Positions 5,298 through 55,731 of a DNA stretch of 64,000 nt are shown piece by piece. Source of the DNA: an uncultured Chloroflexia bacterium (lineage in GTDB: Bacteria; Chloroflexota; Chloroflexia; QHBQ01; JADMIH01); assembly GCA_963797095.1 (NCBI GenBank), contig CAWCNY010000002.1:992001-1056000 (forward strand), read 5' to 3'. The notes beneath the pieces were generated by a model that ran no database searches, had not been told where the DNA came from, and was given only the letters and a program-made list of their open reading frames with translations. Position numbers and translations under genes: made by a program. Numbering within the stretch: position 1 is the stretch's first letter; every line of letters begins with the position of its first letter.

Positions 5298-5380
5298 AAA
5301 AACTGTACCAAAGTACACCCCAAAATCTGTCCAGATTTGTCCCGCCAATGCCATATAGTAAGTGAGGGCAAGTCCAACCC
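5298..5380 (+). repeat. Dispersed ~83-bp intergenic element, copy 1
   Basis: AAAAACTGTACCAAAGTACACCCCAAAATCTGTCCAGATTTGTCC...GAGGGCAAGTCCAACCC; ungapped match to the reverse complement of 20726-20808. Confidence 0.85.
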
Positions 5381-5560
5381 TTGAAAAGAGAATGGCAGAA
5401 GGAGGTGAGCGGTGTTGGTTCGACAAAACTGAGGCTGATCGCCCTGGCTTTGAAGGGATCAGAGCGCAGACTGGGTGCGCGCCATCTTTTAGGAAGGAAA
5501 GAAAAATGATACCCTCTAGGTGAAAACATCCCGGCTAAGGCCGAAATCCTGGAGGGTATC

Positions 5561-7017
5561 ATGCAGAGTAGCGAGTTTCAGGCCGTTTGCGACCTGTCAC
5601 CTGCCCTCACTAGTATTGTGAAGGAATTTGAGGGGCTTGTCAAACAGCTTTGGATATATGCTCAACGCAACCCGGATGCTACTTTGAGCAGTCTCGAAGA
5701 AAGAGCACGTCAACTGCGCTCGGACTGTTTCGCCTCAGCCTTAGAAGCCGCAGCCCAACTGCATCGTGCCATGATAGAGGAAGAATGGCTGCTTGGGCAC
5801 AAGCAGTGTGACTGCGGGCAGACACCCCAGTACAAGGGTAAGCAGCGGCGCACTGTGCAAACATGGGTAGGCACGGTCACATTGGAGAGAGGTTACTTCT
5901 ACTGTAAAGGGTGTGGCACCGGACGCTACCCGCTGGATGAGGCTCTAGGCATACCCGCACGGGAACACTTCTCGGACGGAGTGCAACAAGGAGTGTGCCT
6001 GCTGGGTGTGCAGATGCCTTTCGAGCAGGCTGCACATGCAGTGGAGGTACTCACTGGCATGTCGGTCTCTCCAAGAGAAGCCGAGCGCATGACTGAACAG
6101 AGGGGGCTTACATTAGAGGAGAGCTTGCAAGAGGAGAGCTTGCAAGAGGAGAGCTTGCAAGAGGAGAGCTTGCAAGAGGAGAGGAGAGCTTGCAAGCAGA
6201 AGATCAAACGCTAGGGGCAAGTCCCACCTCTCAGAAAGGTTCAAAGGTTGCAGATGGAGCATTGGGCTTGGGCACATGGGCGGCGACGCTGGACGCTGGC
6301 AAGGTGCGCTACGAAGATGGGTGGCATGACGCTAAAGCGGGAGTGGTGTTTTGGGCCGAGCCTGCATACAACGAAGCAGGAGAGATAGAGGGGGCAAGAG
6401 CCACCCATCAGAGCTATGTGGCGGAGGTCGGCTCGATGGAGCGGGCAGGAAAGCGGTTGAGTGCTGAAGCATGGAGGAGAGGGATAGGCCCTGAGGAGCA
6501 GGTTGTATGTCTGGGAGATGGGGCACCCACCAACTGGATACAGTTCGATGAGCACTTTGCCAACAGGGTAGAGGTACTCGACTGGTATCACGCCATGGAG
6601 CACCTGTGGCAAGCAGGTAATGGTATCTTCGGGCAGGGCACACCAGACGCCGCAAGATGGGTGAAGCGTTGGGAGAAGGAATTATGGGAGGGAAGGGTAG
6701 AAGCAGTCATTGTGGCTCTACACAGAGAGAGCAAACGTGAAGGGGAGGCGGGAGAAGCGGCACGAGAGCAGATTCATTACTTCCAGACGAACAAAGAGAG
6801 GATGCGCTACTCCGAGTACCGGGCATTGGGCTTCCCAGTTGGTTCAGGCACGGTGGAGAGTGCATGCAAGCGGCTGATTGGTGCCCGTCTCAAGGGAGCA
6901 GGCATGTGTTGGAGCAAACCAGGAGCACAAGGGGTGCTGACACTGAGAGCCGAACTGCTCAGTGAGAGGTGGGAGCAATGCTGGCCCAAAACTCGCCCTC
7001 TCAGAAAAGTCGCCTAA
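5561..7017 (+). pseudogene. ISKra4-family transposase split into two frames (5561-6214 and ~6181-7017)
   Basis: N-part has Zn-finger motifs (CDCG, YFYCKGC, PLDEALG). C-part has CLGDGA, LDWYHA and GSGTVESACK..RLKGAGMCW. The frames change inside a 15-bp tandem repeat. Confidence 0.85.
6116..6195 (+). repeat. 15-bp tandem repeat GAGGAGAGCTTGCAA (4 copies + GAGGA + 1 copy)
   Basis: Directly visible; encodes EESLQ repeats. Confidence 0.95.
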
Positions 7018-7049
7018 ACGATGGCGCGCACCCGCGCAGACTTTTCCAC

Positions 7050-7078
7050 TTGCAATGCGCATTGCGCTATGCTATAAT
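7050..7078 (+). promoter_or_regulatory. Sigma70-type promoter for tRNA-Ser
   Basis: TTGCAA-17 nt-TATAAT with extended -10 TG. Confidence 0.75.
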
Positions 7079-7126
7079 TACCGTGCATGAGCGTGCATAG
7101 CAGGTGCGCTCAACCCATTTGTGTGT

Positions 7127-7217
7127 GGGGAGATGCCAGAGAGGTCGAATGGGGCCGCCTGCTAAGCGGTTAAGCGACGTTTAAGTTGCTTCTAGGGTTC
7201 GAATCCCTATCTCCCCG
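7127..7217 (+). tRNA. tRNA-Ser (anticodon GCT); CCA not encoded
   Basis: Acceptor stem GGGGAGA/TCTCCCC plus G discriminator, anticodon arm GCCGC-CT-GCT-AA-GCGGT, long variable arm, T-loop GGTTCGAATCC. Confidence 0.95.
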
Positions 7218-7689
7218 CCCCTTTCCTTTATGTCCCTAGCTTGTAACTTCCAATACCCCTGACCCTTCCCAGCCAGTTTCCACTTACATTACCCACATCA
7301 ACCAAGTTCGCACTCCACCCTTTGTTATCACCTAACCCCTCGTGCTTTCTGATCCAGCGAGCCATTGCCGAACCTGCGAATCCTATCTCTTCTTGATCGG
7401 ATGTAGGCGGTGGTCTTCAGGACCAGTTTTCGCACAACCGTGCCGCGCAACGAATGCGACTCGCTGCTTTCCTCCTATCTACTCAAAGTCTTATCGTGTG
7501 CGCAAAACTGATCCGGCAACCGGTAGCGTTCCATAAAGTAGGAACCAGGAACCAGAAACCAAGGATCAGGAACTGACAATCGTGTATGGAAAATGGCAAG
7601 CGTCATACGCACCCGGCACAATACCTATAGCCAGGTAATGCAATCGAATAGAACCAGCATAATCCGCTCAATGAAGAGAGGAAAACATA

Positions 7690-8667
7690 ATGGAAGAGAT
7701 GCAACGAAATCTTGCGCTTGAACTGGTCAGAGTAACAGAAGCAGCAGCGCTCGCGGCCGGGCTTTGGCTGGGGCGCGGCGATAAGATAGGCGCAGATGCG
7801 GCGGCGGTAAACGCAATGAGGCACACCCTGGCACGCATTGATATGGATGGTGTGGTAGTGATCGGTGAAGGTGAAAAAGATGAAGCCCCTATGCTCTACC
7901 TGGGTGAGGAGATTGGCAACGGCCGCCCCCCCAAAGTAGATATAGCCGTCGACCCTGTTGACGGCACTCGCCTCCTGGCACTTGGTATGCCTGGAGCTAT
8001 CGCGGTGGTGGCTCTCGCCGCCAGAGGTACGATGTTCTCAGCCCCGCCCGGTGTCTATTACATGGAGAAGATCGCGGTTGGCCGAGAGGCTCGCGGGGTT
8101 ATCGACATCCGCAAATCGGTAGCCGACAACATTGCCGCTGTCACAAAGGTGTTGGGGCGCGAAGAAGGCAACGTCACCGTTATGGTGCTCGACCGGCCTC
8201 GCCACGAACAACTGGTGAAAGACATCAGGGCTACAGGGGCGCGTGTGCGCTTCATACCCGACGGCGATGTAGCAGGCGCTATCGCTGCCGCCGACGAAAC
8301 CACCAGCGTTGATATGCTCATGGGTATAGGTGGTGCCCCTGAAGCTGTAGTAGCAGCCTGCGCCCTGAAAGCGCTGGGCGGCGATATGCAGTGCAGGCTC
8401 TATTTCCGAAGTGATGCTGAGCGCCAGGCTGCCGCGTCAGCAAGCATGAGCCAGGATATCGTCTACACAATCGATGACCTGGTGACAAGCGACGATGTCT
8501 TCTTCGCCGCCACCGGCATCACAGACGGCGAGTTACTTCGAGGCGTTCGTTACGGAACAGGCACAGCTACCACCGACTCGGTGGTCATGCGCGCCAAGTC
8601 GGGCACCATCCGCTATATGCATGCTGTGCATCATGGAGACAAACTGTCAAACATCGTGAATTATTGA
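7690..8667 (+). CDS. glpX: Class II fructose-1,6-bisphosphatase
   Basis: RNLALELVRVTEAAALAA, VVIGEGEKDEAPML, DIAVDPVDGT, FAATGITDG. Confidence 0.96.
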   Translation: MEEMQRNLALELVRVTEAAALAAGLWLGRGDKIGADAAAVNAMRHTLARIDMDGVVVIGEGEKDEAPMLYLGEEIGNGRPPKVDIAVDPVDGTRLLALGMPGAIAVVALAARGTMFSAPPGVYYMEKIAVGREARGVIDIRKSVADNIAAVTKVLGREEGNVTVMVLDRPRHEQLVKDIRATGARVRFIPDGDVAGAIAAADETTSVDMLMGIGGAPEAVVAACALKALGGDMQCRLYFRSDAERQAAASASMSQDIVYTIDDLVTSDDVFFAATGITDGELLRGVRYGTGTATTDSVVMRAKSGTIRYMHAVHHGDKLSNIVNY

Positions 8668-8745
8668 GAATGAGACCGAGGATAAGGATTAGCGAGAAGT
8701 CGATCCTGATCCCCTACCTCCCGTCCCTAACTCCTGGAGAAAACA

Positions 8746-10236
8746 ATGGATAGAGATCAAAAACAACAAAACAGTAGAAACGGCTACGCGCGTTACAACC
8801 GGCATCGCGGTGGCACCAAGAAGAGCAGAGGCAGGGAGCAGCAGTTCGACCAGGGTATGGACGATGGGAACATGATGAATGGGAACGTAGCCACAACTCT
8901 TGCGGATGGTGGCAACGGCGCTAGCCCAGGTATGCTTGTGCTGCCCGATAGCCAGGTAGCCGCGGGCCCCTCAAAGGTAATGCACACCCTGGCTGAGCTG
9001 GAAGCCCGCAACATGGACGACCTCCAGGAGATGGCCAAAGAACTGGACATCTCCGGCTACAGCCGCCTCAAGAAGCAAGACCTTGCCTTCCGCATCCTTC
9101 AGGCTCAGACCGAGCAGCAGGGCAACATCTTCAAAAAGGGTATCCTCGATATCATGGATGATGGTTTTGGCTTCATGCGCGTGACCAGCTATCTCCCCAG
9201 CCCCAGCGACGTGTACGTGAGCCAGAGCCAGATCAGGCGCTTCGGCCTGAGGCCGGGCGATGTGGTGGTGGGGCAGGTGCGCGCCCCCAAAGAGGGCGAG
9301 AAGTATTACAGCCTGTTGCGCGTGGAAGTGGTGAATGATATGGACGCGGAGACCGCGAAGAAGCGCCCGCACTTCGGCGACCTCACCCCTATCTTCCCGA
9401 CCCAGATGTATAACCTTGAGACGGGCCAGCAGCAAATCTCGACACGCCTGCTGAACCTGGTGGCCCCGATCGGTCGCGGCCAACGCGGGCTGATAGTGTC
9501 GCCTCCTAAAGCGGGGAAGACGCTGCTCCTGAAGGCCATCGCCAACGGCATCGTCGCCAACTATGGCAACGAGGTGCATCTTATGGTGTGCCTGATCGGT
9601 GAGAGACCGGAGGAAGTGACTGATATGGTGCGCTCGGTAAAGGGTGAGGTGATGGCCTCTACCTTCGACGAGCCTGTGGAGGACCATGCCAAAGTAGCTG
9701 AGTTGACGCTGGAGCGCGCCAAGAGATTGGTGGAAGGGGGGCAGGATGTTGTTATCCTGCTGGACTCGATCACGCGCCTGTCGCGAGCCTACAACACGCT
9801 GATGCCGCCATCGGGCCGCACCCTCACAGGCGGCATGGACCCTATCGCCCTCTACCCGCCTAAGCGCTTCTTTGGCGCAGCCCGCAACATCGAGGAGGGC
9901 GGCTCGCTCACCATCATCGCCACCTGCCTGGTAGACACCGGCTCGCGAATGGACGATGTAGTGTACGAGGAGTTCAAGGGTACAGGCAATATGGAATTGC
10001 ACCTCGATCGCAAATTATCCGAGAAGCGCGTCTTCCCGGCCATAGAGATACCCAAATCGGGCACACGCCGCGAAGAGATGCTTTTCGACGAGAATACCTA
10101 CAGGCAGGTGCTCACAATGCGCCGAATGGTAAGCGTACTGGGCGGTACCGAGGGTCTGGAGCTACTGCTTGCCCGCCTGTCCAAAACGAAAGATAACAAC
10201 GAGTTCCTTGCGACCCTCACCAAGGATATTCTCTAG
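8746..10236 (+). CDS. rho: Transcription termination factor Rho
   Basis: [53 protein letters not shown]. Confidence 0.98.
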
Positions 10237-10294
10237 TTCCGAAGCGAAATCTCTCGCCTAAAGCAATTGCGCGAGAGATTTTGTTTTAGAGACC

Positions 10295-17602: not shown

Positions 17603-19189
17603 GTGGCCAACTCCAGCACACAACAGAAAACACCAGAACAGGCGGACGCGCCCCCGACCAGGTTCGCGGCCTGGTGGATGTCCACGCGCAAGCGACGCTC
17701 CGAGTGGCAAACTCTCATAGCCACGGGCACGGCCACGTTTACGGGCCAGCCGCGCAGGCACTTCGTCGCGGCGCAGCCGGGCGATCCGGTGCTCCTCTAT
17801 GTGTCCAAGCCCGACCATGCTATTCGTGCGGTCGGAGTGGTCCTTGGCCCGACCGATAACGGGCGGCCATCGAGCGAGGATGGGGACGATGCCGGTACCG
17901 CAACGCAAAACCCAAAATCGATCGATGTTCAGCTGGCCTTTGAGCTGCCCGGCCCACTGGCGTGGCGCGATATCCTCGAGGTGCCCGCTCTCGCGAGCGC
18001 GGAGCCGGTGCGGCAGCGAAGTAGTGGCACCCTCTTCGGTCTCACACAGGACGAATATAGGGCGTTACAGGCTTTGATGATCATCCGCAACCCCGAATTG
18101 GCCGGTGCGTTCGCCGCCGTAGACGCGGGCGATGTGCAGCACGACGATGGGGATAGGGAAGAAGATGACGAGTTTGCTGTTATGCCGGGCAGCCCCCCTG
18201 CGGGGGCCGGGGGAGGGAACGGCCTCACCCCTGGCGCACCTACCTGGCTCAGAGAAGAGATCGCCTCTTATGCTGCACCTGCCTTGCCCTATACACCATA
18301 CGGCGCTCTACCCACGATCCGGAACCCGGCCGATCTCGCGGCCCTGACGGGTCTGCCAATGGAGACCCTGGAGGAGGCACGCGACCTGCTGGAAGATACG
18401 GGCCAGATAATCCTGAGCGGGCCGCCCGGCACAGGCAAGACTTGGCTTGCTCGCGGGCTGGCGTCGCTGGTGGCTGCCGGCCACAGCAGGATACAGGTGG
18501 TGCAGTTTCACCCTTCCACAGCCTACGAGGATTTCATCGAGGGGTTGAAGCCTCGTGTGGACGCCCTCGGCCACATCACTTATGCGATCATGCCCGGTAT
18601 CTTCGTACGTATGTGCGAGGAGGCGAGGCGCGATACCGACCACCATTATGTGCTGCTCATTGACGAGATCAACCGCGCCCCGCTTTCCCGAGTATTTGGG
18701 GAATTGCTTTACGCCCTGGAATACAGGGGGCCATCGGGTGCGGTGGAGCTGGCTGCGTCCGCCGGGTCGGGACAGGGCGGCGCTCCATTCTATGTGCCGG
18801 AGAACCTGCTGATTATCGGTACGATGAACTCGGCAGATCGGAGTATAGCGCTGGTAGACTACGCTCTCAGGCGTCGCTTCCGGTTCATCGAGCTTGAGCC
18901 GAACACGGATATACTGGACGGCTGGCTTGCGGCGCATGGGACGCCCGAAGCGGCACGCAGCGTCCTCCTTGACCTGTTCGAGAGCGTCAATAGCCGGCTT
19001 TCCGAGCATCTCGACCCCGATCACCGGCTCGGACACAGCTACTTTATGCTTGATCCACTTGACGCGCATACGCTTGACCTCCTGTGGCGGAGTGCTATCC
19101 GCCCGTTGATATCTGAGTACTTTACGCCTCCTGCAGGCGAGCTTGATGAGTATGCATCGCTGTTCGCGGAGGCGCGCCAGCGGCTGTGA
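17603..19189 (+). CDS. mcrB: McrB-family AAA+ GTPase with N-terminal EVE (PUA-like) domain
   Basis: QPGDPVLLYVS (EVE-like); SGPPGTGKT, QFHPSTAYEDFIEG, IDEINRA, GTMNSADRSIALVDYALRRRF. Confidence 0.9.
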   Translation: MANSSTQQKTPEQADAPPTRFAAWWMSTRKRRSEWQTLIATGTATFTGQPRRHFVAAQPGDPVLLYVSKPDHAIRAVGVVLGPTDNGRPSSEDGDDAGTATQNPKSIDVQLAFELPGPLAWRDILEVPALASAEPVRQRSSGTLFGLTQDEYRALQALMIIRNPELAGAFAAVDAGDVQHDDGDREEDDEFAVMPGSPPAGAGGGNGLTPGAPTWLREEIASYAAPALPYTPYGALPTIRNPADLAALTGLPMETLEEARDLLEDTGQIILSGPPGTGKTWLARGLASLVAAGHSRIQVVQFHPSTAYEDFIEGLKPRVDALGHITYAIMPGIFVRMCEEARRDTDHHYVLLIDEINRAPLSRVFGELLYALEYRGPSGAVELAASAGSGQGGAPFYVPENLLIIGTMNSADRSIALVDYALRRRFRFIELEPNTDILDGWLAAHGTPEAARSVLLDLFESVNSRLSEHLDPDHRLGHSYFMLDPLDAHTLDLLWRSAIRPLISEYFTPPAGELDEYASLFAEARQRL

Positions 19190-19345
19190 GGGTTACTTCA
19201 GCGTCTCACCCCGGCTCCTTCCCCATGAACGGGGAGATGGGAGTTAGAAGTTAGTGGGGAAGAGTTGGGGGACACCCCCAGACCCCTGTCAGGGGACTTC
19301 GCCCCTTGCACCCTCTTCTCCGCTCTGGCAAAGAACACGGAGATT

Positions 19346-20620
19346 ATGAAGGTAACTGACAGTAGCTTCCCAAATGTTTCAGGCGAGAGGTTCTCTATCT
19401 CGCTGAGCGAGTATGGCTCGGTTGAGGTTGCGTTACCCATCGAGGTTTATAGCCTGCTGCGCTCGCGGTATTCGAAGCAAATAGAGGTAGCTCATACCGG
19501 GCGTGAGGGCGTCTACAGGGTCGCGGCCCGCGATTATGTTGGGCGGATCAGCCTGCCGGGCGGGATGCTGGTGATCAGGCCGAAGGTTAGCGTGGGCAAC
19601 CTGTTCTATATGCTGTGCGCCGATGCGGGTTTGGCCGACTTTCACCCTCCACCTATGGGCTTGCATGAGGACGACGAGATATTCCCGTTCATCCTGGCTG
19701 CGCTGCTTAACGCCATCGAGACGGCGGTGGCAAGTGGGCTGTATCGCGACTATAACAGGCGCGAGGACCGCATACCTTATGTGCGGGGCCGCATTCTGCT
19801 CGGCGAGCAGGTGCGGCATGGTTGGCTTCAGCACTTGCATACCTGCGCTTATGCCGATCATAGCTTCGACACACCTGAAAACAGGGTGCTGGCGGCTACC
19901 CTTCGCTTGCTTCCGGCTCTGCTCAGGAGGCGCGAAGCGGAGGATGGGTTGGCGGCGCGAGCACGAAGCCTGCTCCGGCATTTCGGTGAGGTGGCGGCGA
20001 TCCGGCGCGGAGAGGCGGTAGCTCTGCTGCCTCGGCTGCAAATACACCGGCTCAATGCGGCTTATGGGCCCGCTCTTGCCCTTTGCGGGCTGGCTTTGCG
20101 CGGCCTGACGCTGAACGAGCAAGCGGGGGCGCACCCCTACGCTTCCTTCCTGGTGCAGATGCCCAGGCTTTTCGAGAGTTTTCTGACCAAGCGGCTTGCA
20201 AGGCTGCTGCCGAGGTATGGGCTGCGAGTGGTCGCGCAACGGCACGATTATCTGGACGAAGCGCGGACGGTTGGGATCAGGCCCGATGTGCTTGTTTTCG
20301 CGCGTCGAGAGGCCGCTCCGAGGCTTGTGCTCGATGCCAAGTATCGCCGGTCGGAAGGCCCTGATGCCGACCCCAACCGCGACCTGTACCAGGTGAGCGC
20401 TTATCTCGACCGCTATGGATTGAGAGAGGGGGGGCTGGTGTACCCACGCTTCGAGGGTGAGGAGGGTGCGCGTATGAAGCTGCGCGGGACGCCCAAGCAC
20501 CTGCATATTTTGACCCTCGACCTGGGCGCGACCACACCTGCCTTGCTTGACGAGAAGTGCGCTTTGCTTGCACGGCAGGTGGCACAACTTTCCGGTGGGG
20601 TTGGGGCCTCTGATAGTTAG
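19346..20620 (+). CDS. mcrC: McrC-family PD-(D/E)XK nuclease subunit
   Basis: YVGRI, IRPKV, RGRI, DTPENRVL, LFESF, IRPDVL..VLDAKY..DLYQVSAY. Confidence 0.9.
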   Translation: MKVTDSSFPNVSGERFSISLSEYGSVEVALPIEVYSLLRSRYSKQIEVAHTGREGVYRVAARDYVGRISLPGGMLVIRPKVSVGNLFYMLCADAGLADFHPPPMGLHEDDEIFPFILAALLNAIETAVASGLYRDYNRREDRIPYVRGRILLGEQVRHGWLQHLHTCAYADHSFDTPENRVLAATLRLLPALLRRREAEDGLAARARSLLRHFGEVAAIRRGEAVALLPRLQIHRLNAAYGPALALCGLALRGLTLNEQAGAHPYASFLVQMPRLFESFLTKRLARLLPRYGLRVVAQRHDYLDEARTVGIRPDVLVFARREAAPRLVLDAKYRRSEGPDADPNRDLYQVSAYLDRYGLREGGLVYPRFEGEEGARMKLRGTPKHLHILTLDLGATTPALLDEKCALLARQVAQLSGGVGASDS

Positions 20621-20725: not shown

Positions 20726-20808
20726 GGGTTGGACTTGCCCTCATTAACTTAATGTCATAAGTCGGACAAAACGGGACAGGTTTTGGGGTGTACTTAAGTA
20801 CAGTTTTT
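20726..20808 (-). repeat. Dispersed ~83-bp intergenic element, copy 2
   Basis: Reverse complement reads AAAAACTGTACTTAAGTACACCCCAAAACCTGTCCCGTTTTGTCC...GAGGGCAAGTCCAACCC. Confidence 0.85.
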
Positions 20809-21148
20809 AGTAGGTCGGAGTATTGTGCGCGGAGGGTATAAGGTGGGGTTACAGGGCTAATGCAAAGTCAGATAAGGCGGTGGGAAAGGCCGCCCATCCA
20901 GGCCTTGTCATTCTGAACGAAGTGAAGAATGACATAACCAAACCTGGTGTGTCCGATACCGACTTTGCATCAGCCGTACATGAGCCTGTGGCACACCCCC
21001 AAGGATGAAAATTGGCCAAGCGCCTGGTGCAGTTGTTGGTTACAGCGCCTACTTTCAGGTCAGCCCTGGGTGGGGTTAAGAGTGATGCGTGTTGTGGGTG
21101 GGGCGGATGCTATAATTGTTTTTACGATTGCAACCCTTACCTCCTTCG

Positions 21149-23383
21149 ATGGTTAATTACACTGTGAGCACGCACACTACGACGCATCCCCAGACACAAG
21201 AGATCGAGCCTGCACGTCGCGAGGGCATCGCGAGGGTGCAACTGCGGTCAATCGCCTTGCAGCCGTGGCTGTGGGTGGGCGGGTTGACCTTGCTTGCTTT
21301 TGCGTTGCGGCGATTTCACCTGGGCGCGGAGTCGCTATGGTTCGATGAGGCGGATATCGTGGCGCAGGCCCGCCAGCCGCTTGGCAACTTGCTCGATGGA
21401 TTCGCCAGAGCGGGCGAGAACGGCCCTCTCTACACGCTGATGCTTCATTTCTGGATGGCACTCTATGATGGCGTGCCGGGGGTTGCGCGCGCTATGCACC
21501 TCCTGTTCGGGTCGAGCTACGAAGCGCCGATACGCGGCCTCTCGATGCTGTTCGGGACGGCGGGCATACCGGCGATGTACGCGCTGGCACGCAAGATAGG
21601 CGGTACTGCTCTGGGCTTGATTTCGGCGGCGTTGCTGGCTATCAACCCGTTCGACCTGTGGTACTCACAGGACGCCAAGATGTACACCTTGCTTGTGCTG
21701 ATGACCCTGCTCACCACATGGCTCGTTATGCTGGCTGTCGAGCGCAATACAGTGGGATTGTGGGTAGCGTATGTGGTCGCCACATGGGTGATGCTCACGT
21801 CGCACAGCCTGTCGGGTCTGGTGCTGCTGGCCCAGGTGGCCGCGCTGCCGTTCCTGTTGCGGGCGCGCAGATGGCAAGTGGCGTCGAGGTCCACCAATGA
21901 GGCAGACGGGCAACCCGGGAAGCGTAACCCGAACTGGATATGGGCGTTCTTGCTTATCGTGCTGCCGGTGCTGCCTATCGTGTGGCTGCGGGCCGCCGCC
22001 GTGCTGACGGGCACGGTCGATTCGGGCAACTGGTATACAAGCACCACTCTCCCGGATATACTGCTCACCATTTTCGTGAAGTTCGCGGTAAACCAGGCGG
22101 TGCCCTGGGAGATCGCGGACGGTCTTTCGCTCTCGTGGGAGGGGGTTGGAGCGCTTGCCATGGGCGTACTCGCGGTGACAGGGGTGGTGGCGCTTGTCAG
22201 GCGGCCCCGTATCGTTGTGCGCCGACCTGCAACTGCAAGCTCAGGTGAAACGATACAGGAAGACCGGGTGTTGCACAACAGGTACCAGTATCATGCTCGA
22301 TCCGCGATTGTGCTTGCGCTGTGGTTGGTGCCCGTGCTGGTGTTCTGGGTGCTTACGCTGGCTCTGCCGTTGTTTCACCCTCGCTATCTGATTATGGCGC
22401 TGCTGGCATATCTGATCATGGCGTCAGCCGGGATCGTGGCGTTCAGACGGATAAACATGCTTGGACTGGTGGTGCTGCTGGGTCTATTGGCGGTTTCGAC
22501 GGGGGCCGCTCTTGCCAGTATCAATTACTCGGCGCAGCCGCAGAAGGAGGATTGGCGGGGGGCTATGCAGTACGTGCAGGACCACCTGCGGCTGCGCGAC
22601 GTGATCGTGCCGTTCCCCGGCTATCTGCAAACGGCGGTGAACCTCTACTACAAACCCGGAGGGACGGCACTGGTCCCGGACCGCCCGGTAAGCACGGTCA
22701 AGAGCCTGGGCACCGAGAACTACGGCACCCGCGAGATGGAGGAGGATTTACGCAGCATAGCGCAGTGCAACGAGCGGGCGTGGCTGGTGGTGTCGCCTGT
22801 GAGAGCGGATGGGGAAGACCCTGAGCAGAAGGTGCTACAGTGGTTCCAGTACAACTTCATGACATTTGATACGCAGGTGTTCAATGGGGTAACAGTGTAC
22901 GGGATCGCGTTCAACAGCGTATACGATTGCTGGTCGCCGAACCCTGATTACAGCGAGCCTCATCAATTTGAGAACGGGCTGAGGTTCCTGGGCTATATTT
23001 ACGAACTGCGCGACCAGAGCCAGCAGCCTGTGCAGCCTGACGCGTCGTATTTGCCTCTCACGTTGTTCTGGCGCACCGACAAGCAACTGACAGGGGACTA
23101 CGAGTTTCGCATCCAGGTGATCTCGCCATCGGGCGAGGTAGTGAAAGACGAGGCGCTTGGGCTGGAGAACGGGTACTTCCCCGCGACGCAGCTACACCCG
23201 GACGTGACGGTGATGGACTACCGGGATATTCGTCTACCGGGGGGGCTTATGCCGGGGGATTACCGGGTGACGGTGCAGGTATATCCGAGGGGAGAGCCGG
23301 ACAGCCCGCTCAAGCTGGTGGGTGAGGATGGGAATACGATCACATTGGGGCAGACGGTGAAGGTAGTGCCGTGGCAGCCTTGA
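21149..23383 (+). CDS. GT-C / family 39 (PMT-like) glycosyltransferase
   Basis: SLWFDEA, PLY..LHFW, YSQDAKMY, many TM helices, PRY, EDWRGA, C-terminal extracellular domain; start uncertain. Confidence 0.88.
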   Translation: MVNYTVSTHTTTHPQTQEIEPARREGIARVQLRSIALQPWLWVGGLTLLAFALRRFHLGAESLWFDEADIVAQARQPLGNLLDGFARAGENGPLYTLMLHFWMALYDGVPGVARAMHLLFGSSYEAPIRGLSMLFGTAGIPAMYALARKIGGTALGLISAALLAINPFDLWYSQDAKMYTLLVLMTLLTTWLVMLAVERNTVGLWVAYVVATWVMLTSHSLSGLVLLAQVAALPFLLRARRWQVASRSTNEADGQPGKRNPNWIWAFLLIVLPVLPIVWLRAAAVLTGTVDSGNWYTSTTLPDILLTIFVKFAVNQAVPWEIADGLSLSWEGVGALAMGVLAVTGVVALVRRPRIVVRRPATASSGETIQEDRVLHNRYQYHARSAIVLALWLVPVLVFWVLTLALPLFHPRYLIMALLAYLIMASAGIVAFRRINMLGLVVLLGLLAVSTGAALASINYSAQPQKEDWRGAMQYVQDHLRLRDVIVPFPGYLQTAVNLYYKPGGTALVPDRPVSTVKSLGTENYGTREMEEDLRSIAQCNERAWLVVSPVRADGEDPEQKVLQWFQYNFMTFDTQVFNGVTVYGIAFNSVYDCWSPNPDYSEPHQFENGLRFLGYIYELRDQSQQPVQPDASYLPLTLFWRTDKQLTGDYEFRIQVISPSGEVVKDEALGLENGYFPATQLHPDVTVMDYRDIRLPGGLMPGDYRVTVQVYPRGEPDSPLKLVGEDGNTITLGQTVKVVPWQP

Positions 23384-33867: not shown

Positions 33868-34168
33868 ACCCAAGCCAAGTCCCGAAAGGACGCTAGAACA
33901 TAGCCCAGGGTATAAGCCCTATGGATTGTATGCCACCCAAGCAGAAGTCCCGAAGGGACGGCAGAAAGTAGCCCAGGGCGTAAGCCCTGCGGTTAGCAAG
34001 ACTACCCAAAGCAAGTAGTCCCGTAGGGACGTAAGAAGATTAGCATTGCATCATATAGGACCGGGCGATTGTTCTTGCGCCCCTACGGGGCTATGGCATT
34101 TTCCTTGGCTTACCACAGGGCTTGCGCTCCGGGCTATTATCTAGCGTCCCTACGGGACTTGGCTTGGG
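33868..34168. repeat. REP-like / MITE-like cluster bounded by ~56-bp imperfect inverted repeats
   Basis: cccaagccaagtcccgaaaggacgctaga..tagcccaggg..aagccct at the left end is mirrored at 34113-34168; internal direct copies at ~33946 and ~34017. Confidence 0.8.
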
Positions 34169-34220
34169 ATTTATATATGACAACATTGCCCACCACGGGT
34201 GTCCCTATCCCAGATCCCCT

Positions 34221-34356
34221 GAAACTGTACTTAAGTAGACCCCCAAACCTGTCCGTTTTGTCCATCCAATGTCATTTAGCAAGTGAAGGGGAGATCCAAC
34301 CACCTTCCAATCAAACTACCGGAATCCGAAACATCACTGTACTAAAGTACGCATCC
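34221..34356 (+). repeat. Dispersed intergenic element, copy 3 (extended form)
   Basis: GAAACTGTACTTAAGTAGACCCCCAAACCTGTCCGTTTTGTCC...TCCAACC, then a second ACTGTACTAAAGTAC. Confidence 0.75.
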
Positions 34357-34528
34357 ATATCTGGAACTGCTCGCATAATCCGGCATACCCATGCGAAAAG
34401 CCCGCCCTTCGAGGTGATAGGTTGACGCAGGCTCCACATTAAGTTTATAGACTATTGGATGGAGCGGTGGAACGAAGGCTATACAGAGAGATATTCAAGC
34501 GTGAACGTGAGGGTCAGGAGGCATAATA

Positions 34529-40802: not shown

Positions 40803-42047
40803 CGTTCCGAAAGCGGCTAAGACCCTCGCCTTATGAACATTAACAAATAAATCATCATAGGATAGAATGCATAAAGTTGGGGTATAATGTACTTATACGA
40901 AAGACGTTTCTGTACAGGATACGGCCTACTAAGATACAAGCCACTCGATTGAGTGCCATGCTTGAAGAGTGTCGCTGGCTGTACAATACCTTGCTCGAAC
41001 AGCGCAAGATATCTTGGGAAGAAGGCGGCCTGTCTATGAGCATGTACGCCCAGCATCAATACATCCCTTTCTTGAAGAAGGAACGTCCTACACTCTCTCA
41101 GGTACACAGTCAGGTCTTGCAGAATGTCTCCCAACGCATAGACCTTGCTTTTCAGCACTTTTTTCGTAGAGTAAAAGGCGGTGAAAAGCCCGGCTATCCC
41201 AGATTTCGCGGCTATGGTAGATATAACAGTATGTGCTACCCGCAAGCGCCTTCGGGATGTAACCTGGTGGGCAATAAGCTTCACCTGTCCAAAGTCGGGC
41301 CTGTAGAGGTAGTGCTTCATCGCCCGCTTGAGGGTACGCCTAAGACTGTTTGCGTCAAGCGAAGCGGCACTGGCAAATGGTATGCATCCTTCTCCTGTGA
41401 GTGGGAGCCTACCAGACTGCCTGAAAGCCCTGAGCGGGTAGGTATAGATGTTGGCCTCAAGACGTTCGCTACCCTCTCTACCGGAGAGGAGATTGAAAAC
41501 CCGCGCTTCTTTCGCCTTGAGGAAAAGGCGCTTGCTAAAGCGCAACGCCTGCTTTCCAGGCAAGAGAAAGGTACTCCTGAGCGAGCTAAACGAAGGAAGG
41601 TAGTAGCGAGAGTGCATGAGCGTATAGGCTGGCGTAGAGATAACTTCGCTCACCAGCATTCTCGCAGGATAGTCAACCGTTTCGGGTTGATAGCACTTGA
41701 GGATTTGGGAGTCAACCGGATGAAGCACAACCACTGTCTGAGCAAAAGTATCAGTGATGTGGCGTGGAGCGGGTTTCGCAGCATGATTGCGTGCAAGGCA
41801 GAATGGGCTGGCCGCAAGTACGTTGCTGTAAATCCTGCTTATAGCAGCCAGACGTGTAGTGGTTGCGGGCATAGATTGGCTACCGATAAGAGGCTCGGTC
41901 TCTCCGACAGGATATTCGATTGTCCGTGTTGTGCTTTGCATATCGACAGAGACCTCAATGCCTCTTTGAACATTCTTGCGTTGGGATTACAACGCATCGG
42001 TAATCAATCCGTAGAAGCCCCGCCGTTTACGGCTGGGGAGTAATCTC
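40803..42047 (+). mobile_element. tnpB-only IS200/IS605-family (IS1341-like) element; ends approximate
   Basis: Left end follows TTTAT and contains AAGCGGCTAAGACCCTCGCC; right-end hairpin AGAAGCCCCGCCGTTTACGGCTGGGGAG-TAATCTC; no tnpA. Confidence 0.75.
40877..42043 (+). CDS. tnpB: RNA-guided endonuclease TnpB
   Basis: RKTFLYRIRPT, GYPRF, RuvC-I GIDVG, RuvC-II LEDL, Zn finger CSGCG/CPCC, RuvC-III DRDLNASLNI. Confidence 0.93.
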   Translation: MGYNVLIRKTFLYRIRPTKIQATRLSAMLEECRWLYNTLLEQRKISWEEGGLSMSMYAQHQYIPFLKKERPTLSQVHSQVLQNVSQRIDLAFQHFFRRVKGGEKPGYPRFRGYGRYNSMCYPQAPSGCNLVGNKLHLSKVGPVEVVLHRPLEGTPKTVCVKRSGTGKWYASFSCEWEPTRLPESPERVGIDVGLKTFATLSTGEEIENPRFFRLEEKALAKAQRLLSRQEKGTPERAKRRKVVARVHERIGWRRDNFAHQHSRRIVNRFGLIALEDLGVNRMKHNHCLSKSISDVAWSGFRSMIACKAEWAGRKYVAVNPAYSSQTCSGCGHRLATDKRLGLSDRIFDCPCCALHIDRDLNASLNILALGLQRIGNQSVEAPPFTAGE

Positions 42048-50478: not shown

Positions 50479-50526
50479 CTAGGCATTGTCCTCGCCGGTG
50501 ATGCTCATAAGTGTGCTACTACTCAT
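50479..50526 (-). CDS. Candidate 15-aa small ORF MSSSTLMSITGEDNA
   Basis: Full SD AAGGAGGTGA 5 nt upstream; has its own promoter and terminator. Confidence 0.55.
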   Translation of the reverse strand: MSSSTLMSITGEDNA

Positions 50527-50597
50527 ACGCATCACCTCCTTGTTCTTAATGTGGGGCCGGGACGATAAATTTGTTTAGAGGTGGCCTCACTGATTCA

Positions 50598-50627
50598 ACT
50601 ATAACAGAGCGTAGATCTGATTGTCAA
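50598..50627 (-). promoter_or_regulatory. Strong sigma70-type promoter for the small-ORF transcript
   Basis: TTGACA-18-TATAGT with extended -10 TG. Confidence 0.7.
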
Positions 50628-50855
50628 GGAGAAGTCATTAAGATCGGCATGAATACATCTACAGTAGGATGTATAATCGGCTGGCGGGTGTTGGCCCGCC
50701 ACAGACTGCCATTCTTTGCTTTTTGTTGAACGCACGCTAACTCTGATATAATTGAACGTACTTTGCCCGCGACCTTGCGTAAAAAGTGCGGTTAGGCACC
50801 CTCAATTCGCGCGCATTTATATCCCGTATTCCATTTTGGAGGAGGCTTACACAGA

Positions 50856-51701
50856 ATGCACCTTGGCTCTTTGCCGGGAATTCTACTTGCCCTTGCCTGG
50901 GGGCTGCTGGGCACTGCGCCCGGCCACAACGCAAATATCGCAGGCAATACGGTTGGTGCGAATAGCATCGCCCTTTATTCGATTGTCGCTCAGGCCGAGA
51001 CGCCAACAGTTGAGACGGGAACGACAACGATTACGCCCACCGCTACTCTTGAGATCACGGGCACGGCGGCCAGCACGATAACTCCCACCGGGACGATCAG
51101 CGTTACCGGCACGATCACGAGTGGGGGGACCCTTACTCCGACCGTAGAGGCCCCGACAGTTATACCGCTGCCGACGGCTGTGCCCCAGCAGATACAGCCG
51201 AGCTTGCAGATCAACCCCTTTGACTGGAACTTCCTGACAAGCGCGCCAACGGACCCGACTCCCAAACTTGGTCCTTTCGCATGGATTTTCCTGGTGCTTA
51301 TGTTGGTGCTGGTAGGGGGCGGTATTTACGGCTACAGAGTGTTGCGGCCCAGGTGGAAGAATACGAATACGGTGTGGTATAAGGCGGTTGCCAGGTTTGG
51401 GCAACCTGCTCTCTGGATCGGCGTGCTGGGGCTGGTGTTCCTTTTCTTCAGATTAGTAGAGCTGGACTTCTTCAACAAACGGCTGTGGCTCTACCTGGAT
51501 GGAGGGGCGCTGCTGGGGCTGATCGTGTGGTTCTTCTACTGGTATCGCAACTCATACCCGCAGGAGATAGCGAAGTTCCAGAAGACACAGAAAGCCAAGC
51601 AGTATATGCCGTCGGGGACGAAAGGCCCTGTGCGTAGCACGACCGGGCCAAGCTCACCGGTTGCCCAGAAGCGGGGCAGCAAGAACCGCCGGAAGAAGTA
51701 A
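50856..51701 (+). CDS. Hypothetical membrane protein with a Thr-rich extracellular region and basic C-terminus
   Basis: SD GGAGGAGG, signal peptide, 3 TM helices. Confidence 0.8.
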   Translation: MHLGSLPGILLALAWGLLGTAPGHNANIAGNTVGANSIALYSIVAQAETPTVETGTTTITPTATLEITGTAASTITPTGTISVTGTITSGGTLTPTVEAPTVIPLPTAVPQQIQPSLQINPFDWNFLTSAPTDPTPKLGPFAWIFLVLMLVLVGGGIYGYRVLRPRWKNTNTVWYKAVARFGQPALWIGVLGLVFLFFRLVELDFFNKRLWLYLDGGALLGLIVWFFYWYRNSYPQEIAKFQKTQKAKQYMPSGTKGPVRSTTGPSSPVAQKRGSKNRRKK

Positions 51702-51860
51702 GGCTTAGTAGAAGATACGCAAGTTGCTAACGATGCCCGCCATTGGCGGGCATCAATCTTGATGATATGTAGTAAGGGAGAGCCGCGCAACTTTTCCACC
51801 CGGCTCTCCGTCATAGTAATATAAACATGGACGCAATGACGACCAGGAGGGAAGATACAC

Positions 51861-53219
51861 ATGCTCACTACTTTACACAAGACTACTGAATTCAAGAGAC
51901 GGGCGCGAGGTTTTCTCCACGCCTCCTGGGCTGCTTGCGTTGTTCTGCTTGCTCTGGCGCTGGCACTTTCAGCTTGCGATTTCAGTCCGACACCTACACC
52001 CATTACCGGACCAACCTCGACGCCTGTGGCTACGGCGACTGCTGAGGGGCCTACTTCTACGCCGACCGGTGCGCCTACAGCAACGGCCACGCCTTTGCCG
52101 CCGAGCGCGACGCCCACGATTATGCCGTCGCCTACGCCCTCGCCAAGTCCCACTGAAGTGCCTTTGCCTACGTATACGTGGCAGCCGCTTGGTGTTCCGG
52201 AGGGTACGAACCTGCGCGATATCGCTTTGCTACCCGGAGGGAAGAATATAGTGCTGGTAGGGTCGGCATCGGGCGTGTGGCGGAGCGAGTACGATTATTC
52301 GAACTGGCAGAAATTGGATGTGCCGATACCGAGCAACCCACGTCCAGGCAATGTAGAGGTGGCTATAGGCAGCGCGGATGTGTTTTATGTAACGGCGCAC
52401 ACCGCATGCGCCAGCGGTCTGCCGATCAATAGTTTCCGCTCGACAGATGGAGGCCAGACCTGGGAGAAGATGTCTGTGCAGTTGTTGGATATGTACGCGC
52501 CCAATGCCACTCTAGCATACGGAACCGTTTGTGGAGGCGTATTGAAGAGCACAAATTCGGGAGCTACATGGTCGGATGTGCTGCCTGGGTCGCCCGTGGA
52601 TAATGGCGATCCGTATGCGGTTACAGGAAGCCCCGACGCCCAGTCGGTATACGTGGCGTATGCCAGCGAGGGTGGCACGGGTACGGTCAAGCGCAGCACT
52701 GACGGCGGTGGTAGCTGGACCGATGTGACCCCCAGGAACGTGCCGCCGGATGGGCTGCTGCATGCCACCGTGCAGATGATGTTCGTGCCAGGATCGGTCG
52801 GGAGGCCGGACGATGGCGGGCTATATATGGCGAACGGCCAGGGTACTTTCTTCCTGCCGATTGAGAGCGACGAGTGGCAGGTGCATATCGACACGGCTAA
52901 CGCGGTAGATAATGCAGAGTACTACTTGACGGCGCTGTACGCAGATACGGCTTACAGTGATGATTACGTGAAGCCAGGGCCTGTGTTGTACACGGCACGC
53001 GCCAAGCTGGGAGACCAGGCACTGGAAGGGATCGGTGTGTTCAGATCTATCAACCTGGGCGCGACCTGGCAGATGGTCGGTGATGATATCGGCAAGCGGT
53101 CGGTGCAGGGATTGGCGCTGGCCCCTCATGATACGACCGCCGTGCCCGATATGACGGAGGCGCTGATAGCGACAACATCGGATGGGGTGTGGGGGGTATT
53201 GATGCCGCCTTTGAAGTAG
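51861..53219 (+). CDS. BNR/Asp-box beta-propeller lipoprotein
   Basis: Lipobox LSAC, Pro/Thr linker, repeated RSTDGG.TW. Confidence 0.85.
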   Translation: MLTTLHKTTEFKRRARGFLHASWAACVVLLALALALSACDFSPTPTPITGPTSTPVATATAEGPTSTPTGAPTATATPLPPSATPTIMPSPTPSPSPTEVPLPTYTWQPLGVPEGTNLRDIALLPGGKNIVLVGSASGVWRSEYDYSNWQKLDVPIPSNPRPGNVEVAIGSADVFYVTAHTACASGLPINSFRSTDGGQTWEKMSVQLLDMYAPNATLAYGTVCGGVLKSTNSGATWSDVLPGSPVDNGDPYAVTGSPDAQSVYVAYASEGGTGTVKRSTDGGGSWTDVTPRNVPPDGLLHATVQMMFVPGSVGRPDDGGLYMANGQGTFFLPIESDEWQVHIDTANAVDNAEYYLTALYADTAYSDDYVKPGPVLYTARAKLGDQALEGIGVFRSINLGATWQMVGDDIGKRSVQGLALAPHDTTAVPDMTEALIATTSDGVWGVLMPPLK

Positions 53220-53245
53220 GGGAGTTCGGAGTTCCTGAGTATTGG

Positions 53246-55474
53246 TTAGCGCTTGTAGAGGGTCACTATCCCGTTGGTCCAGGCGTTGTTCTGGGGGGAG
53301 TATCCGGCGGTTGTAGGATCTTGTTTCGACCATAAGAGGGCGTAGTCCGGCAGGTTATTGGGGTCTGCGGGGAGTATGGGTTGGCCGAAGGTGAGCGATG
53401 GATCGCCGTACTCGGTGCGCCCCTCTCGTAGATAATAGCCGAGGGCAGCGGTGTAGCCGCCGCCGATCTTCCCATCTAGTATCGGATCGTCCGCTGGACT
53501 TCCTAAAAGGAGTGACGCACCCGAAGGGATCAGAGCGGGCAGTTGATCCAGGTGCCCAGGGGTTTTGAGTGTATATACCTGGTCGTTGCCGAACTCTTGC
53601 ACCAGCGTGAAGGTGTCGAGCACTCCGCCTTCGGCGTGGGTGGTCCGCCATTTGAAATCGTCCAATTGCGGGCCGCTGAGGTTCTCCAGGTGCACAACCA
53701 CATACTTCACGCCGAGCGCCCACAGGGCGTCTACGCTTCGGGCGCAGGGGAAACAGTCGTCTGTTTCGTGGATAAGGGCCGAATAGGCGAAGGGCCTGAT
53801 CGTGACGCTGCCGTTAACGGTGCGATCCCAGTGATATGTGCTGAAGTACTGGTAGGTGTTGCCCATAACCACATTGAGGTCGCCGGTCTTGTAGTAAACC
53901 ATAGGATACTCGACGATAGCCGCAGGAGGTTGGGCGGCCAGCCAGCGGTAGACCTGGGGCACCGCGCTGCGGGTAGGGATCGGTTCCATGTTGAGGGGGG
54001 CGCTCCAACTCTCGGCCACGGGGATAAGCGCAAGCAATATGGCTAGCGCGGGAACCCAACGGCGGGTGGAGCGTTGTTGGTTCTCGGTCTGGCGCGTTCG
54101 TCTCTCGCCCAGCCAGCGCAATAGAGCCAGCGTGCCGATACCGGCGAGGACCGCCAGGGAGAGCGCGATCAATACCTCAATGCGCGAGACGGTGCGCATA
54201 CTGGTGAAGCCTGGCACAAGGTTGAATAGGAGCAAGTAGGGAAGGGGCATCACGCCATTGATCGCGTTGGGGTCGTAATAGTTGTCGGGATAGGTAAGTT
54301 GGAGGGTTGGCCCCAGAGAGAGCACTACGGATACCAGGGCCACAATCACATAGAATATGGCGTGCTTGCCCAGGCTTAGCGGTGGGCGCTCGTTGGCTTT
54401 ATCGTCCGCTTGCATAGTCGCCGTCGTGGGTTGGCTTGCGCGCCTGCGCCGCCACAGCCAAACGAGGCCGATAATGGTCAGGATCAGCACGCCCAGGCCG
54501 GGGAATGCTGCGTGCTCAAGGGGCCAGGGTCCCTGGTCGGCGAATGGGGCGAGCAGGGTTTTGTAGAGAGGGTTGGCTTTGTACACCGATAGGAAGCTGA
54601 CGATAGCATAGGAGTAGCGCTCGGTCTGGTAAATATCGCGGCTGAAGCCGTACCCTGCCTGCACTTCCCGGTAGGCAAGCGCGATAGGAAGGATCAGGAG
54701 GGCAGACATAACCATCCCGGCCAGGAACCTGATCCAGAATGTGCGGGAGAAGAGCGGGCGTTGGACAATGAAGTAGTAGATTATGAACAGGCCAAGCAAG
54801 ATAGCCGAGTAGTAGGCGAGGTAGTGAGTGGAGAGGGCCTGGAGGGCGAAGAATATACAGAGAGCACCTGCCCAGCGCCATTTGTGCGTCCAGAGCAGCT
54901 TGTAGGCAGACAGGAGGATGAAGGGGAGCCATTCGGCGCTGAGGATGGTGGGGTGGATGAGGTTGTTCAGCATGTAGAAGCTGAACGCGTAGGCTGTGCC
55001 CGCCGCCAATCCTGCCCACCTGCTGCCTGTAAGCTCCCGGACCAGCAGCCACGTGCCGTAACCTCCCAGGATGAAGGCCACAAAGACCACGAAGTTGAGG
55101 CCAAGCACAGGGTTGCCCGTTGCCAGGTAAACGGGCGCTGAGATCACCGATTCGGTAAACGAGATTTCGTTGAAGCCGAGAGTGCCTGAGTACGGGTAGT
55201 TGATGTTGGCTTCCATCAAGCCGAGGGGGTTGGTGGCGAGGGCATGTCCCTGCCAGGCCAGTTCCCAGGTGACGAGTAGAGAGTCGTCTTTGTCGACGAG
55301 ATAGCCGCCCAGGTTGGGGAACATGGGCCAGGTGGCAGCGATGGTGATGAGGGCCATAGCAGCCAGCACGGTGATGTGCGGGAGCAGACGCGCTCCCAGC
55401 ACGCGCGTTTGCGCCAGTTTTGATTCGGTGACTTGTGCCTGGCTCAGTTGGGCAGTGGCGCTTTCGGTAGCCAT
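53246..55474 (-). CDS. GT-C fold membrane glycosyltransferase-like protein
   Basis: D..L..W.LAW..H, NINYPY..TLGFNE, many TM helices, PGF.SMR..SR. Confidence 0.8.
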   Translation of the reverse strand: MATESATAQLSQAQVTESKLAQTRVLGARLLPHITVLAAMALITIAATWPMFPNLGGYLVDKDDSLLVTWELAWQGHALATNPLGLMEANINYPYSGTLGFNEISFTESVISAPVYLATGNPVLGLNFVVFVAFILGGYGTWLLVRELTGSRWAGLAAGTAYAFSFYMLNNLIHPTILSAEWLPFILLSAYKLLWTHKWRWAGALCIFFALQALSTHYLAYYSAILLGLFIIYYFIVQRPLFSRTFWIRFLAGMVMSALLILPIALAYREVQAGYGFSRDIYQTERYSYAIVSFLSVYKANPLYKTLLAPFADQGPWPLEHAAFPGLGVLILTIIGLVWLWRRRRASQPTTATMQADDKANERPPLSLGKHAIFYVIVALVSVVLSLGPTLQLTYPDNYYDPNAINGVMPLPYLLLFNLVPGFTSMRTVSRIEVLIALSLAVLAGIGTLALLRWLGERRTRQTENQQRSTRRWVPALAILLALIPVAESWSAPLNMEPIPTRSAVPQVYRWLAAQPPAAIVEYPMVYYKTGDLNVVMGNTYQYFSTYHWDRTVNGSVTIRPFAYSALIHETDDCFPCARSVDALWALGVKYVVVHLENLSGPQLDDFKWRTTHAEGGVLDTFTLVQEFGNDQVYTLKTPGHLDQLPALIPSGASLLLGSPADDPILDGKIGGGYTAALGYYLREGRTEYGDPSLTFGQPILPADPNNLPDYALLWSKQDPTTAGYSPQNNAWTNGIVTLYKR

Positions 55475-55593
55475 TGGTGCCTTTTCCTGTCTTGGGGTTT
55501 GCGGTTGTACTGTACCACAAAAGTTCCTGTGGGGATAACTGCGTTTGCCTCTTGATCTTGTGGAACGAGCTCTTTTATCCGGCTACTGACATC

Positions 55594-55731
55594 GGAATGT
55601 GTACTCCAGTACAGTCGGTGATCCGGATTTCAGGAGGTTGATAGGAGGATGGTTAAATCTGCCCTCGTTAACTTAAAGGCATTGATGAGGCAAAACGGAA
55701 CAGGTTTCGGGGTGTGCTTAAGTATGGTTTC
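55594..55731 (-). repeat. Dispersed intergenic element, copy 4 (extended form)
   Basis: Reverse complement reads GAAACCATACTTAAGCACACCCCGAAACCTGTTCCGTTTTGCC...TAAGTTAACGAGGGCAGATTTAACC, then ACTGTACTGGAGTACAC. Confidence 0.75.

Follow-up and report, generated by a model that had tools for sequence, protein, structure and literature searches.

A lineage-restricted intergenic repeat family of a Chloroflexota species, probably a non-autonomous mobile element

Why should one short non-coding sequence recur at four places within 64 kb of bacterial DNA? The DNA in question (hereafter the window, a stretch of 64,000 nucleotides, nt) belongs to an uncultured Chloroflexia bacterium whose genome (G000; 8 contigs with 6,018,930 bases in total and a completeness of 93%) it covers at C2:992001-1056000. 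The original prediction, made from the letters of the window, described a dispersed element in four copies and offered three readings of it: a protein-binding or recombination site, a non-autonomous mobile element whose mobiliser is unknown, or a non-coding RNA. Here we report that the four stretches are copies of a repeat of ~140 nt and, with moderate confidence, that they belong to a lineage-restricted, selfish, non-autonomous mobile family which came to populate the intergenic regions of this species. Among the three readings, the mobile element fits best because of the ~94 dispersed copies, their random orientation, their even, neutral decay, the patchy, lineage-specific distribution and the existence of species-specific subfamilies, and the RNA reading found no support.

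Copies, ends and placement of the repeat

A profile was built from the four window copies and iterated by nhmmer over G000 until convergence. It matched 93-94 copies at E<1e-4 in 6.02 Mb, rising to 98 copies at E<1e-2 and to 102 at E<1, as expected from the prediction that four copies in the window meant many in the genome (93 nhmmer matches at the strictest threshold). The window copies themselves were recovered (E 1e-15 to 6e-22) at the predicted places and on the predicted strands, all of them intergenic (Table 1), and they align over ~82 nt. Copies 1 and 2, for which 14 mismatches in 83 nt had been counted by hand, align gap-free over 83 nt at a matching 83% identity, the palindrome attributed to copy 2 is indeed perfect, and copies 3 and 4 do share additional sequence, ~57 nt more, up to a second CTGTAC-N4-GTAC. 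A narrow literature search found no publication describing the element.

The consensus head (82 nt) reads AAAAACTGTACGAAAGTACACCCCAAAACCTGTCCCGTTTTGTCCCACCAATGCCATTTAGTAAATGAGGGCAAGTCTAACC and is laid out as AAAAAC, a variable arm and loop, AAGTACACCCCAAAACCTGTCCNGTTTTG, an A/T-rich box and GAGGGCAAG. In a full unit of ~140 nt, this head is followed by a C/A-rich tail of ~60 nt that closes with a second CTGTAC-N4-GTACAC (tail end ...GATCACCGGCTGTACCAAAGTACACAT). The tail is recognisable in 28-30 copies, about a third, always starting -2 to +41 nt from the head end, and many 'short' copies retain traces of it. The 5' boundary is sharp, with conservation beginning at the A-run (A at model positions 2-5 in 78/87 to 82/90 copies, and at position 1 in 49/49 copies aligned there). 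At the other side, full units end in GTACAC-AT(C/T)C, the recurrent 3' end being GTACACAT, beyond which similarity is weak. On the element strand, C is abundant and G scarce over a stretch that begins ~60 nt upstream and continues through the tail. The unit is bounded by direct, not inverted, repeats; in agreement with the earlier reading, visual inspection of the four copies, of their alignment and of the listing of 93 copies, to which no repeat-finding tool was applied, showed no terminal inverted repeats.

The predicted layout, with a palindrome at the 5' side, holds for some copies and is not constant: TGTAC-N4-GTACA is intact in 19/81 near-full copies, and in 25/81 the left arm reads CACCC with a GAAA loop while the right arm is unchanged, so that the stem is broken without compensation. 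A second hairpin, GTAC-N3-5-GTA, could be located in 16/93 copies, and palindromes lie near both ends in copies 3, 4 and others. Comparing the two hairpins in 34 copies, we found that the one in the head differs from that of its own tail at 5.15 of 16 positions and from the tails of other copies at 5.22. Being no more alike within than between copies, the terminal CTGTAC-N4-GTACAC repeats were evidently not made at insertion. No target duplication was found, the longest word common to the 5' flank and the 3' end having a mean of 4.0 versus 4.18 +/- 0.15 in shuffled pairings (38 copies).

Placement was judged against crude gene calls based on a codon-usage score, those of the window being checked against Pfam. 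Overlap with these calls exceeds 20 nt in only 3/94 copies and is <=20 nt in 91/94. With respect to the flanking genes, 25 of the 94 copies are co-directional in the same sense, 25 co-directional and antisense, 28 lie between divergent and 16 between convergent genes, which matches the background expected from intergenic lengths (~54 co-directional, 27 divergent, 13 convergent). Within co-directional gaps, the median distance is 81-85 nt to the upstream stop versus 161-163 nt to the next start, whichever way the element points. Neither local GC skew nor gene strand was associated with an orientation bias (p 0.22 each), and no gene family recurring beside the copies in a fixed arrangement was found. 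Given the random orientation and the lack of a fixed relation to genes, we rejected a promoter, leader, 5' untranslated region or terminator module; a sigma-70-type promoter was not found in the two copies scanned. Coding sequence was rejected as well, in keeping with the earlier statement that no open reading frame (ORF) is conserved: three-base periodicity was not seen in the profile, the reverse-strand ATG is intact in 61/92 copies and the overlapping ORFs have no Pfam family.

Variation among copies and occurrence in relatives

Conservation along the head is uneven, from near-invariant positions (G32 in 93/93, C34 in 92/93 and C11 in 92/92 copies) to position 56, which is A in only 61/92. 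We split the variants into common (>=10%) and rare (<10%) alleles, and found that rare variants make up 4.6% (149/3239) in core positions 11-45 and 5.4% (162/2987) in positions 46-80 (Fisher p 0.15). This flat rate shows that single copies decay evenly, that is neutrally, after insertion, and that the uneven conservation stems from a few common alternative blocks of the source copies. These blocks (TGTA/CACC at 7-10, TCC/AAT at 76-78, TA/AT/AA at 63-64 and C/A at 36) were found in all combinations and at near-random frequencies, for example 14, 8, 10 and 9. Because the changes are multi-base, such free assortment needs recombination between copies or modular assembly. Three copies contain an internal tandem duplication of 19-21 nt of about the same segment (model positions 44-63), whose units are similar within a copy and different between copies, suggesting a recurrent local event. 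A solitary AAAAAACTGTACCAAAGTACA site with no element after it could be a relic, the footprint of an excision or a chance match (Table 1).

Occurrence in the genus and class was counted with an exact 17-nt core pattern, AAAAYCTGTCCNGWTTT, which may miss diverged relatives. Among the 26 genomes of the genus, it matched 50 times in G000, 10 times in G017, 3 times in G014 and once in G005; the other 22, G016, G021 and G022 among them, gave 0, as did the reversed control. Outside the genus, single matches in 3/375 genomes versus 2 control matches amount to background (401 class genomes were sampled). A 29-nt head pattern found 34 copies in G000 and 0 in other species representatives, and a metagenome collection yielded one contig (L094), of the G017 type.

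What the relatives keep is CCAAAACCTGTCCNGTTTT, its spacing and an A/T-rich box ending in (G)AGGGG; their 5' hairpin differs from species to species. It reads AAAAAATAC...GTATYTTTT (ATAC/GTAT) in G017, GTAGCC...GGaCTAC in one copy of G014 and CCAATTT...AAATTGG in G005. The 5' A-run, conserved in G000, is lacking in 3/11 G017-type copies (10 G017 loci and the metagenome contig). The ten G017 copies, a set picked by exact core match, average 83% identity. Two of the 11 G017 loci share their intergenic region with a G000 copy, where ~0.4 is estimated by chance, and one of the two differs in place and strand, so that inheritance is not shown. The picture is one of separate, species-specific expansions, as mobile families behave.

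Rival readings and a possible mode of movement

A nearly invariant core, the sole part common to all four species, would also be expected if the repeat carried a DNA site used by the host, with a putative protein binding the core and the copies organising or regulating the chromosome; a nucleoid-associated protein, an OmpR/PhoB-type response regulator or a site-specific recombinase could be the partner. The palindrome of copy 2 has the form of a dimer-binding site, and the two TGTCC of the TGTCC-N5-TGTCC direct repeat lie 10 base pairs apart, or one helical turn, an arrangement that we take to be linked to OmpR/PhoB-type regulators. We nevertheless consider such a site rather improbable: the core accumulates rare mutations much as the remainder of the head does, the second TGTCC itself varies (T/C, 52 versus 33), position and orientation are unrelated to promoters, and the element was not found in 22 of the 26 genus genomes. 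Moreover, the core words are essentially confined to the elements of G000 (AAAACCTGTCCNGTTTT, 40 inside and 0 outside; AAAGTACACCCC, 38 and 0; TGTCC-N5-TGTCC, 31 inside and 4 outside versus 25 for the reversed control), and thus form no stand-alone set of binding sites. A transcription-factor regulon site was therefore rejected, as neither stand-alone promoter sites nor protection from mutation were seen. An RNA, be it the product of a small RNA gene in many copies or a cis-acting module that is transcribed, would read the same copies differently, with a reverse strand ending in a hairpin and UUUUU or a forward strand with a CCUCC-rich tail. On the reverse strand, the palindromic variant does read as a hairpin followed by TTTTT, pairing of the AAAAC/GTTTT stem holds in 78-89 of 89-93 copies, a 5' hairpin of different sequence is kept in the relatives, and the fold of copy 1 is better than those of its shuffles (z = -2.56). 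Yet that copy is the only one of eight with a z-score below -2 (range -2.6 to +1.2), the other seven folding no better than shuffles, the terminator-type hairpin is intact only in the minority of copies given above, and the two promoter scans were negative. Rfam (Rfam 15) gave no match on the element at the gathering threshold in the window, nor at E<=1 in eight copy-holding loci, its sole matches being two to Acido-Lenti-1 beside copy 3. The RNAalifold consensus of 81 near-full copies was empty on both strands, and the strongest column dependencies all join neighbouring bases, indicating block substitutions, not base pairs. Compensatory changes were found neither for TTGTCC/GGGCAA, the pairing that the original prediction had proposed, nor for the AAAAC/GTTTT or CATTT/AAATG stems, and several of the pairs are frequently broken, G42-C72 in 34/84 copies. 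The predicted RNA thus found no support, a described RNA family was rejected, and we regard an RNA of any kind as very doubtful.

Another way to account for the mosaic of blocks is a modular repeat of the BOX/ERIC kind, spread or homogenised mainly by recombination or gene conversion and with no dedicated transposase. Independent assortment of the blocks, species-specific 5' modules around a common core, the internal tandem duplications and the absence of transposon-type ends would all suit it. Gene conversion alone, however, cannot seed ~94 unrelated intergenic sites, and the common 5' boundary together with the recurrent 3' end argues for a defined inserted unit, so we judge this reading unlikely.

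For a non-autonomous mobile family, which we favour, a possible mode of movement is single-strand 'peel-and-paste' by a trans-acting HUH/Y1-type enzyme, as in IS200/IS605 and gene-less PATEs. We put it forward tentatively, on the grounds that there is no target duplication, inverted ends were not seen, palindromes lie near both ends on the same strand in some copies and composition is strand-asymmetric, and that the hairpins are kept between species in form, not in sequence. On the C/A-rich strand, such an enzyme would read the invariant stem-loop AAAAC-CTGTCCN-GTTTT along with the sub-terminal hairpins, and the element would be excised and pasted as a single strand, leaving no duplication and needing no inverted ends. 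Inserted copies might then swap segments by ectopic recombination, and the enzyme may be lost or may be encoded in a portion of the genome that was not assembled. A long shot is an enzyme class new to miniature elements, one that would recognise the same stem-loop plus a structure-specific, sequence-free 5' hairpin and make the repeat a gene-less bacterial counterpart of Helitron-type elements. With its conserved loop, AAAAC-CTGTCCN-GTTTT resembles a Rep/HUH nick site, and rolling-circle-like or one-ended copying from the sharp head would explain the ragged 3' side.

The search for a mobiliser was negative, and none of the IS200/IS605, RAYT-like and IS110 elements that it covered suits the repeat. 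G000 has 4 Y1 (IS200/IS605 TnpA) genes, at C1:424188, C3:965884, C3:1053944 and C4:495048, and 8 TnpB genes. One Y1 gene is single-copy (locus L043, Table 1) and lies between purine-biosynthesis genes, flanked by GTAG-tagged hairpins in a RAYT-like arrangement; the element model gave no nhmmer match at this locus and a marginal one (E 0.033) in L098, the locus of the G017 Y1 gene, ~1.5 kb downstream of that gene. Y1 genes occur in 18/26 genus genomes, including all four element carriers. IS110 was rejected as mobiliser, being present in 6/26 genus genomes and absent from G017, G014 and G005, and the IS91 Y2 family gave no match in a search whose control also gave none. The original prediction had suggested looking for a longer copy adjoining a recombinase or transposase, and the only distant head-tail pair holds an insertion sequence (IS) that arrived later. 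In this pair, a ~1.3-kb IS with its own inverted ends (GAGCCTTCCG.../...CGGAAGGCTC), a TTAG duplication and a 411-codon open frame, which we take to be ISAzo13-like, interrupts a copy of the element behind model position 62. The ISLre2/UPF0236-like family, a member of which stands beside copy 1, has 12 loci in G000, 3 of them within 400 nt of an element copy and on different sides; as its IS lies 3' of copy 1 yet 5' of another copy, in opposite orientation, the end of a known IS was rejected as an origin of the repeat.

Several of these results weigh against a mobile family or against the mode of movement proposed for it. Neither empty sites nor insertion polymorphisms turned up among the relatives, whose coding DNA is 65-75% identical and whose synteny is broken, and the public DNA runs consist of short, low-depth soil-metagenome contigs, none bridging or skipping the element, which makes them uninformative on polymorphism and on expression. 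Because no empty site was found, mobility and the mode of movement are what we infer from the copies as they stand. Recent movement is not evident from pairwise identities (mean 75%, maximum 96%). No autonomous partner was found, since the sole head-tail pair more than ~40 nt apart (1308 nt) encloses the unrelated IS just described, and no head or tail match was found in the flanks of the 4 TnpA and 8 TnpB loci except for one diverged copy beside an IS. The single-copy Y1 gene of G017 is flanked, like that of G000, by GTAG-tagged hairpins other than those of the element, and a further 14 genomes have Y1 genes but no element, so Y1 is not specific to element carriers. Finally, the small share of copies with an intact 5' palindrome is awkward for a hairpin-reading enzyme, and the hairpin adjoins the 5' boundary, leaving no space for an IS608-style guide.

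Small dispersed repeats of this sort shape the intergenic regions of bacterial genomes, cause breaks in assemblies and can pass for regulatory RNAs or binding sites. As the present family shows, strong conservation of a core does not have to imply a host function, and a test on rare mutations tells selection on each copy apart from conservation that the source copies passed on. In a Chloroflexota lineage already crowded with repeats, this is one further repeat type and otherwise an ordinary genome parasite; with its species-specific hairpin modules and its invariant stem-loop, it offers a concrete substrate for finding the enzyme.

Neighbouring features and known systems

Table 1. The four copies of the repeat in the window, followed by features near them and elsewhere (window positions unless a contig of G000 or a locus is named)
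Feature	Position	Strand	Description	nhmmer match
Copy 1	5298..5379	+	Head only, palindromic variant CTGTAC-CAAA-GTACAC; tail not recognisable	5298-5378 (+), E 5.7e-22, model positions 1-81
Copy 2	20727..20808	-	Head only, perfect palindrome TGTACTTAAGTACA; tail not recognisable; antisense to mcrC and the PMT_2 gene	20808-20728 (-)
Copy 3	34220..34358	+	Head and C/A-rich tail ending CTGTACTAAAGTACGCAT; 139 nt	34222-34295 (+)
Copy 4	55594..55732	-	Head and tail ending CTGTACTGGAGTACACAT; 139 nt; starts two bases past the stop codon of the upstream gene (last base 55734)	55730-55652 (-)
ISLre2/UPF0236-like transposase	5561-7017	+	Two overlapping ORFs, 5561-6214 and 6190-7017
McrBC-type restriction pair	17603-20620	+	McrB-like protein (N-terminal EVE domain and AAA_5 ATPase), then mcrC
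mcrC	19265-20620	+	Pfam McrBC, E 9e-45
PMT_2 gene	21116-23383	+
Acido-Lenti-1 match	33946-33991	-	Inverted pair with the next, just upstream of copy 3
Acido-Lenti-1 match	34114-34159	+
Acido-Lenti-1 match	L004 1606-1651	-	Second inverted pair, with the next
Acido-Lenti-1 match	L004 1771-1816	+
Solo TnpB gene	40877-42043	+	OrfB_IS605, Cas12f1-like TNB and HTH; the crude caller chose the opposite-strand ORF 40817-41941
Y1 gene (L043)	C4:495048-495389	-	RAYT-like arrangement
Split element copy	C5:537982-539410		Contains the ~1.3-kb IS
Copies with internal tandem duplication	C2:22338, C2:1119887, C2:895183
Solitary AAAAAACTGTACCAAAGTACA site	C5:725611
STRR-like arrays, examples	C3:650829, C7:146610		Upstream of element copies
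Repeat ending ...GCCCACAAGGGGTGCCTCTA	C2:74084, C6:327604, C6:1050501, C6:689286		In 5' flanks of element copies, and of others

Within the window, copy 2 stands between the stop of mcrC, the second gene of a McrBC-type restriction pair, and a PMT_2 gene, and a solo TnpB gene lies between copies 3 and 4 (Table 1).

Other repeats are found beside the element. Heptamer (STRR-like) arrays such as CACTCCG, CTTCAAA and CACTCGG occur within 60 nt upstream on the same C-rich strand, and 7/10 of these upstream arrays stop within 4 nt of the A-run; with 10/93 copies having an array upstream and 9/93 downstream, versus 7.5% of random intergenic 60-mers, there is no enrichment. In no fewer than 4 copies, a different repeat of ~100 nt, ending in ...GCCCACAAGGGGTGCCTCTA, adjoins the 5' side of the element with a constant spacing of 10-12 nt, either as part of composite units or because one repeat targets the other. 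The Acido-Lenti-1 matches (41-53 bits) form inverted pairs just upstream of element copies, and in G000 they look like REP-like hairpin repeat units rather than a small RNA gene.

How, then, does the element compare with small repeats already described? BOX of Streptococcus pneumoniae and ERIC/IRU of enterobacteria are strongly palindromic and have stable folds. The element resembles BOX and ERIC as a modular intergenic repeat of 100-150 nt with no known mobiliser and with modules that vary between copies, and it differs from them in being strand-asymmetric, in having no consensus fold and in showing no sequence relation. Miniature inverted-repeat transposable elements (MITEs) derived from DDE transposons, such as Correia elements, carry terminal inverted repeats and target duplications. 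They share with the element a non-autonomous nature, a length of 100-200 nt and an intergenic location; a DDE-type MITE was rejected, given that no target duplication was found, inverted ends were unseen by eye and the ends are direct repeats. PATEs, to which we return below, are reportedly also treated by Dyall-Smith et al. 2011 (PMC3119063).

In the part of the literature drawn on here, repetitive extragenic palindromes (REPs) are palindromes of 20-40 nt, tagged with GTAG or CGTC and associated with RAYT transposases (PMC3733652). As far as that account goes, the element is like REPs and REPINs in being dispersed, intergenic, hairpin-bearing and lineage-specific; a REP/REPIN-RAYT system was rejected, the RAYT-like Y1 genes of G000 and G017 being flanked by other, GTAG-tagged hairpins. 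The element thus lacks the defining features of DDE-type MITEs, of REP/RAYT systems and of Rfam families.

PATEs are gene-less derivatives of IS200/IS605 single-strand transposons, in the portion of the published account used here (Meers et al. 2023, PMC10055086). Measured against that portion, the element departs from PATEs in that its ends match no IS200/IS605 copy in G000, its left palindrome abuts the boundary and is mostly not intact, no clear target or pair of end motifs is apparent and no orientation bias was detected. Matching autonomous ends are thus lacking, and the absence of target duplication is common to both. Within the same limits of the source, the element is like a PATE in being small, non-coding and multicopy, with terminal inverted repeats unseen by eye, palindromes near both ends on one strand in some copies and a presumed mobilisation in trans.

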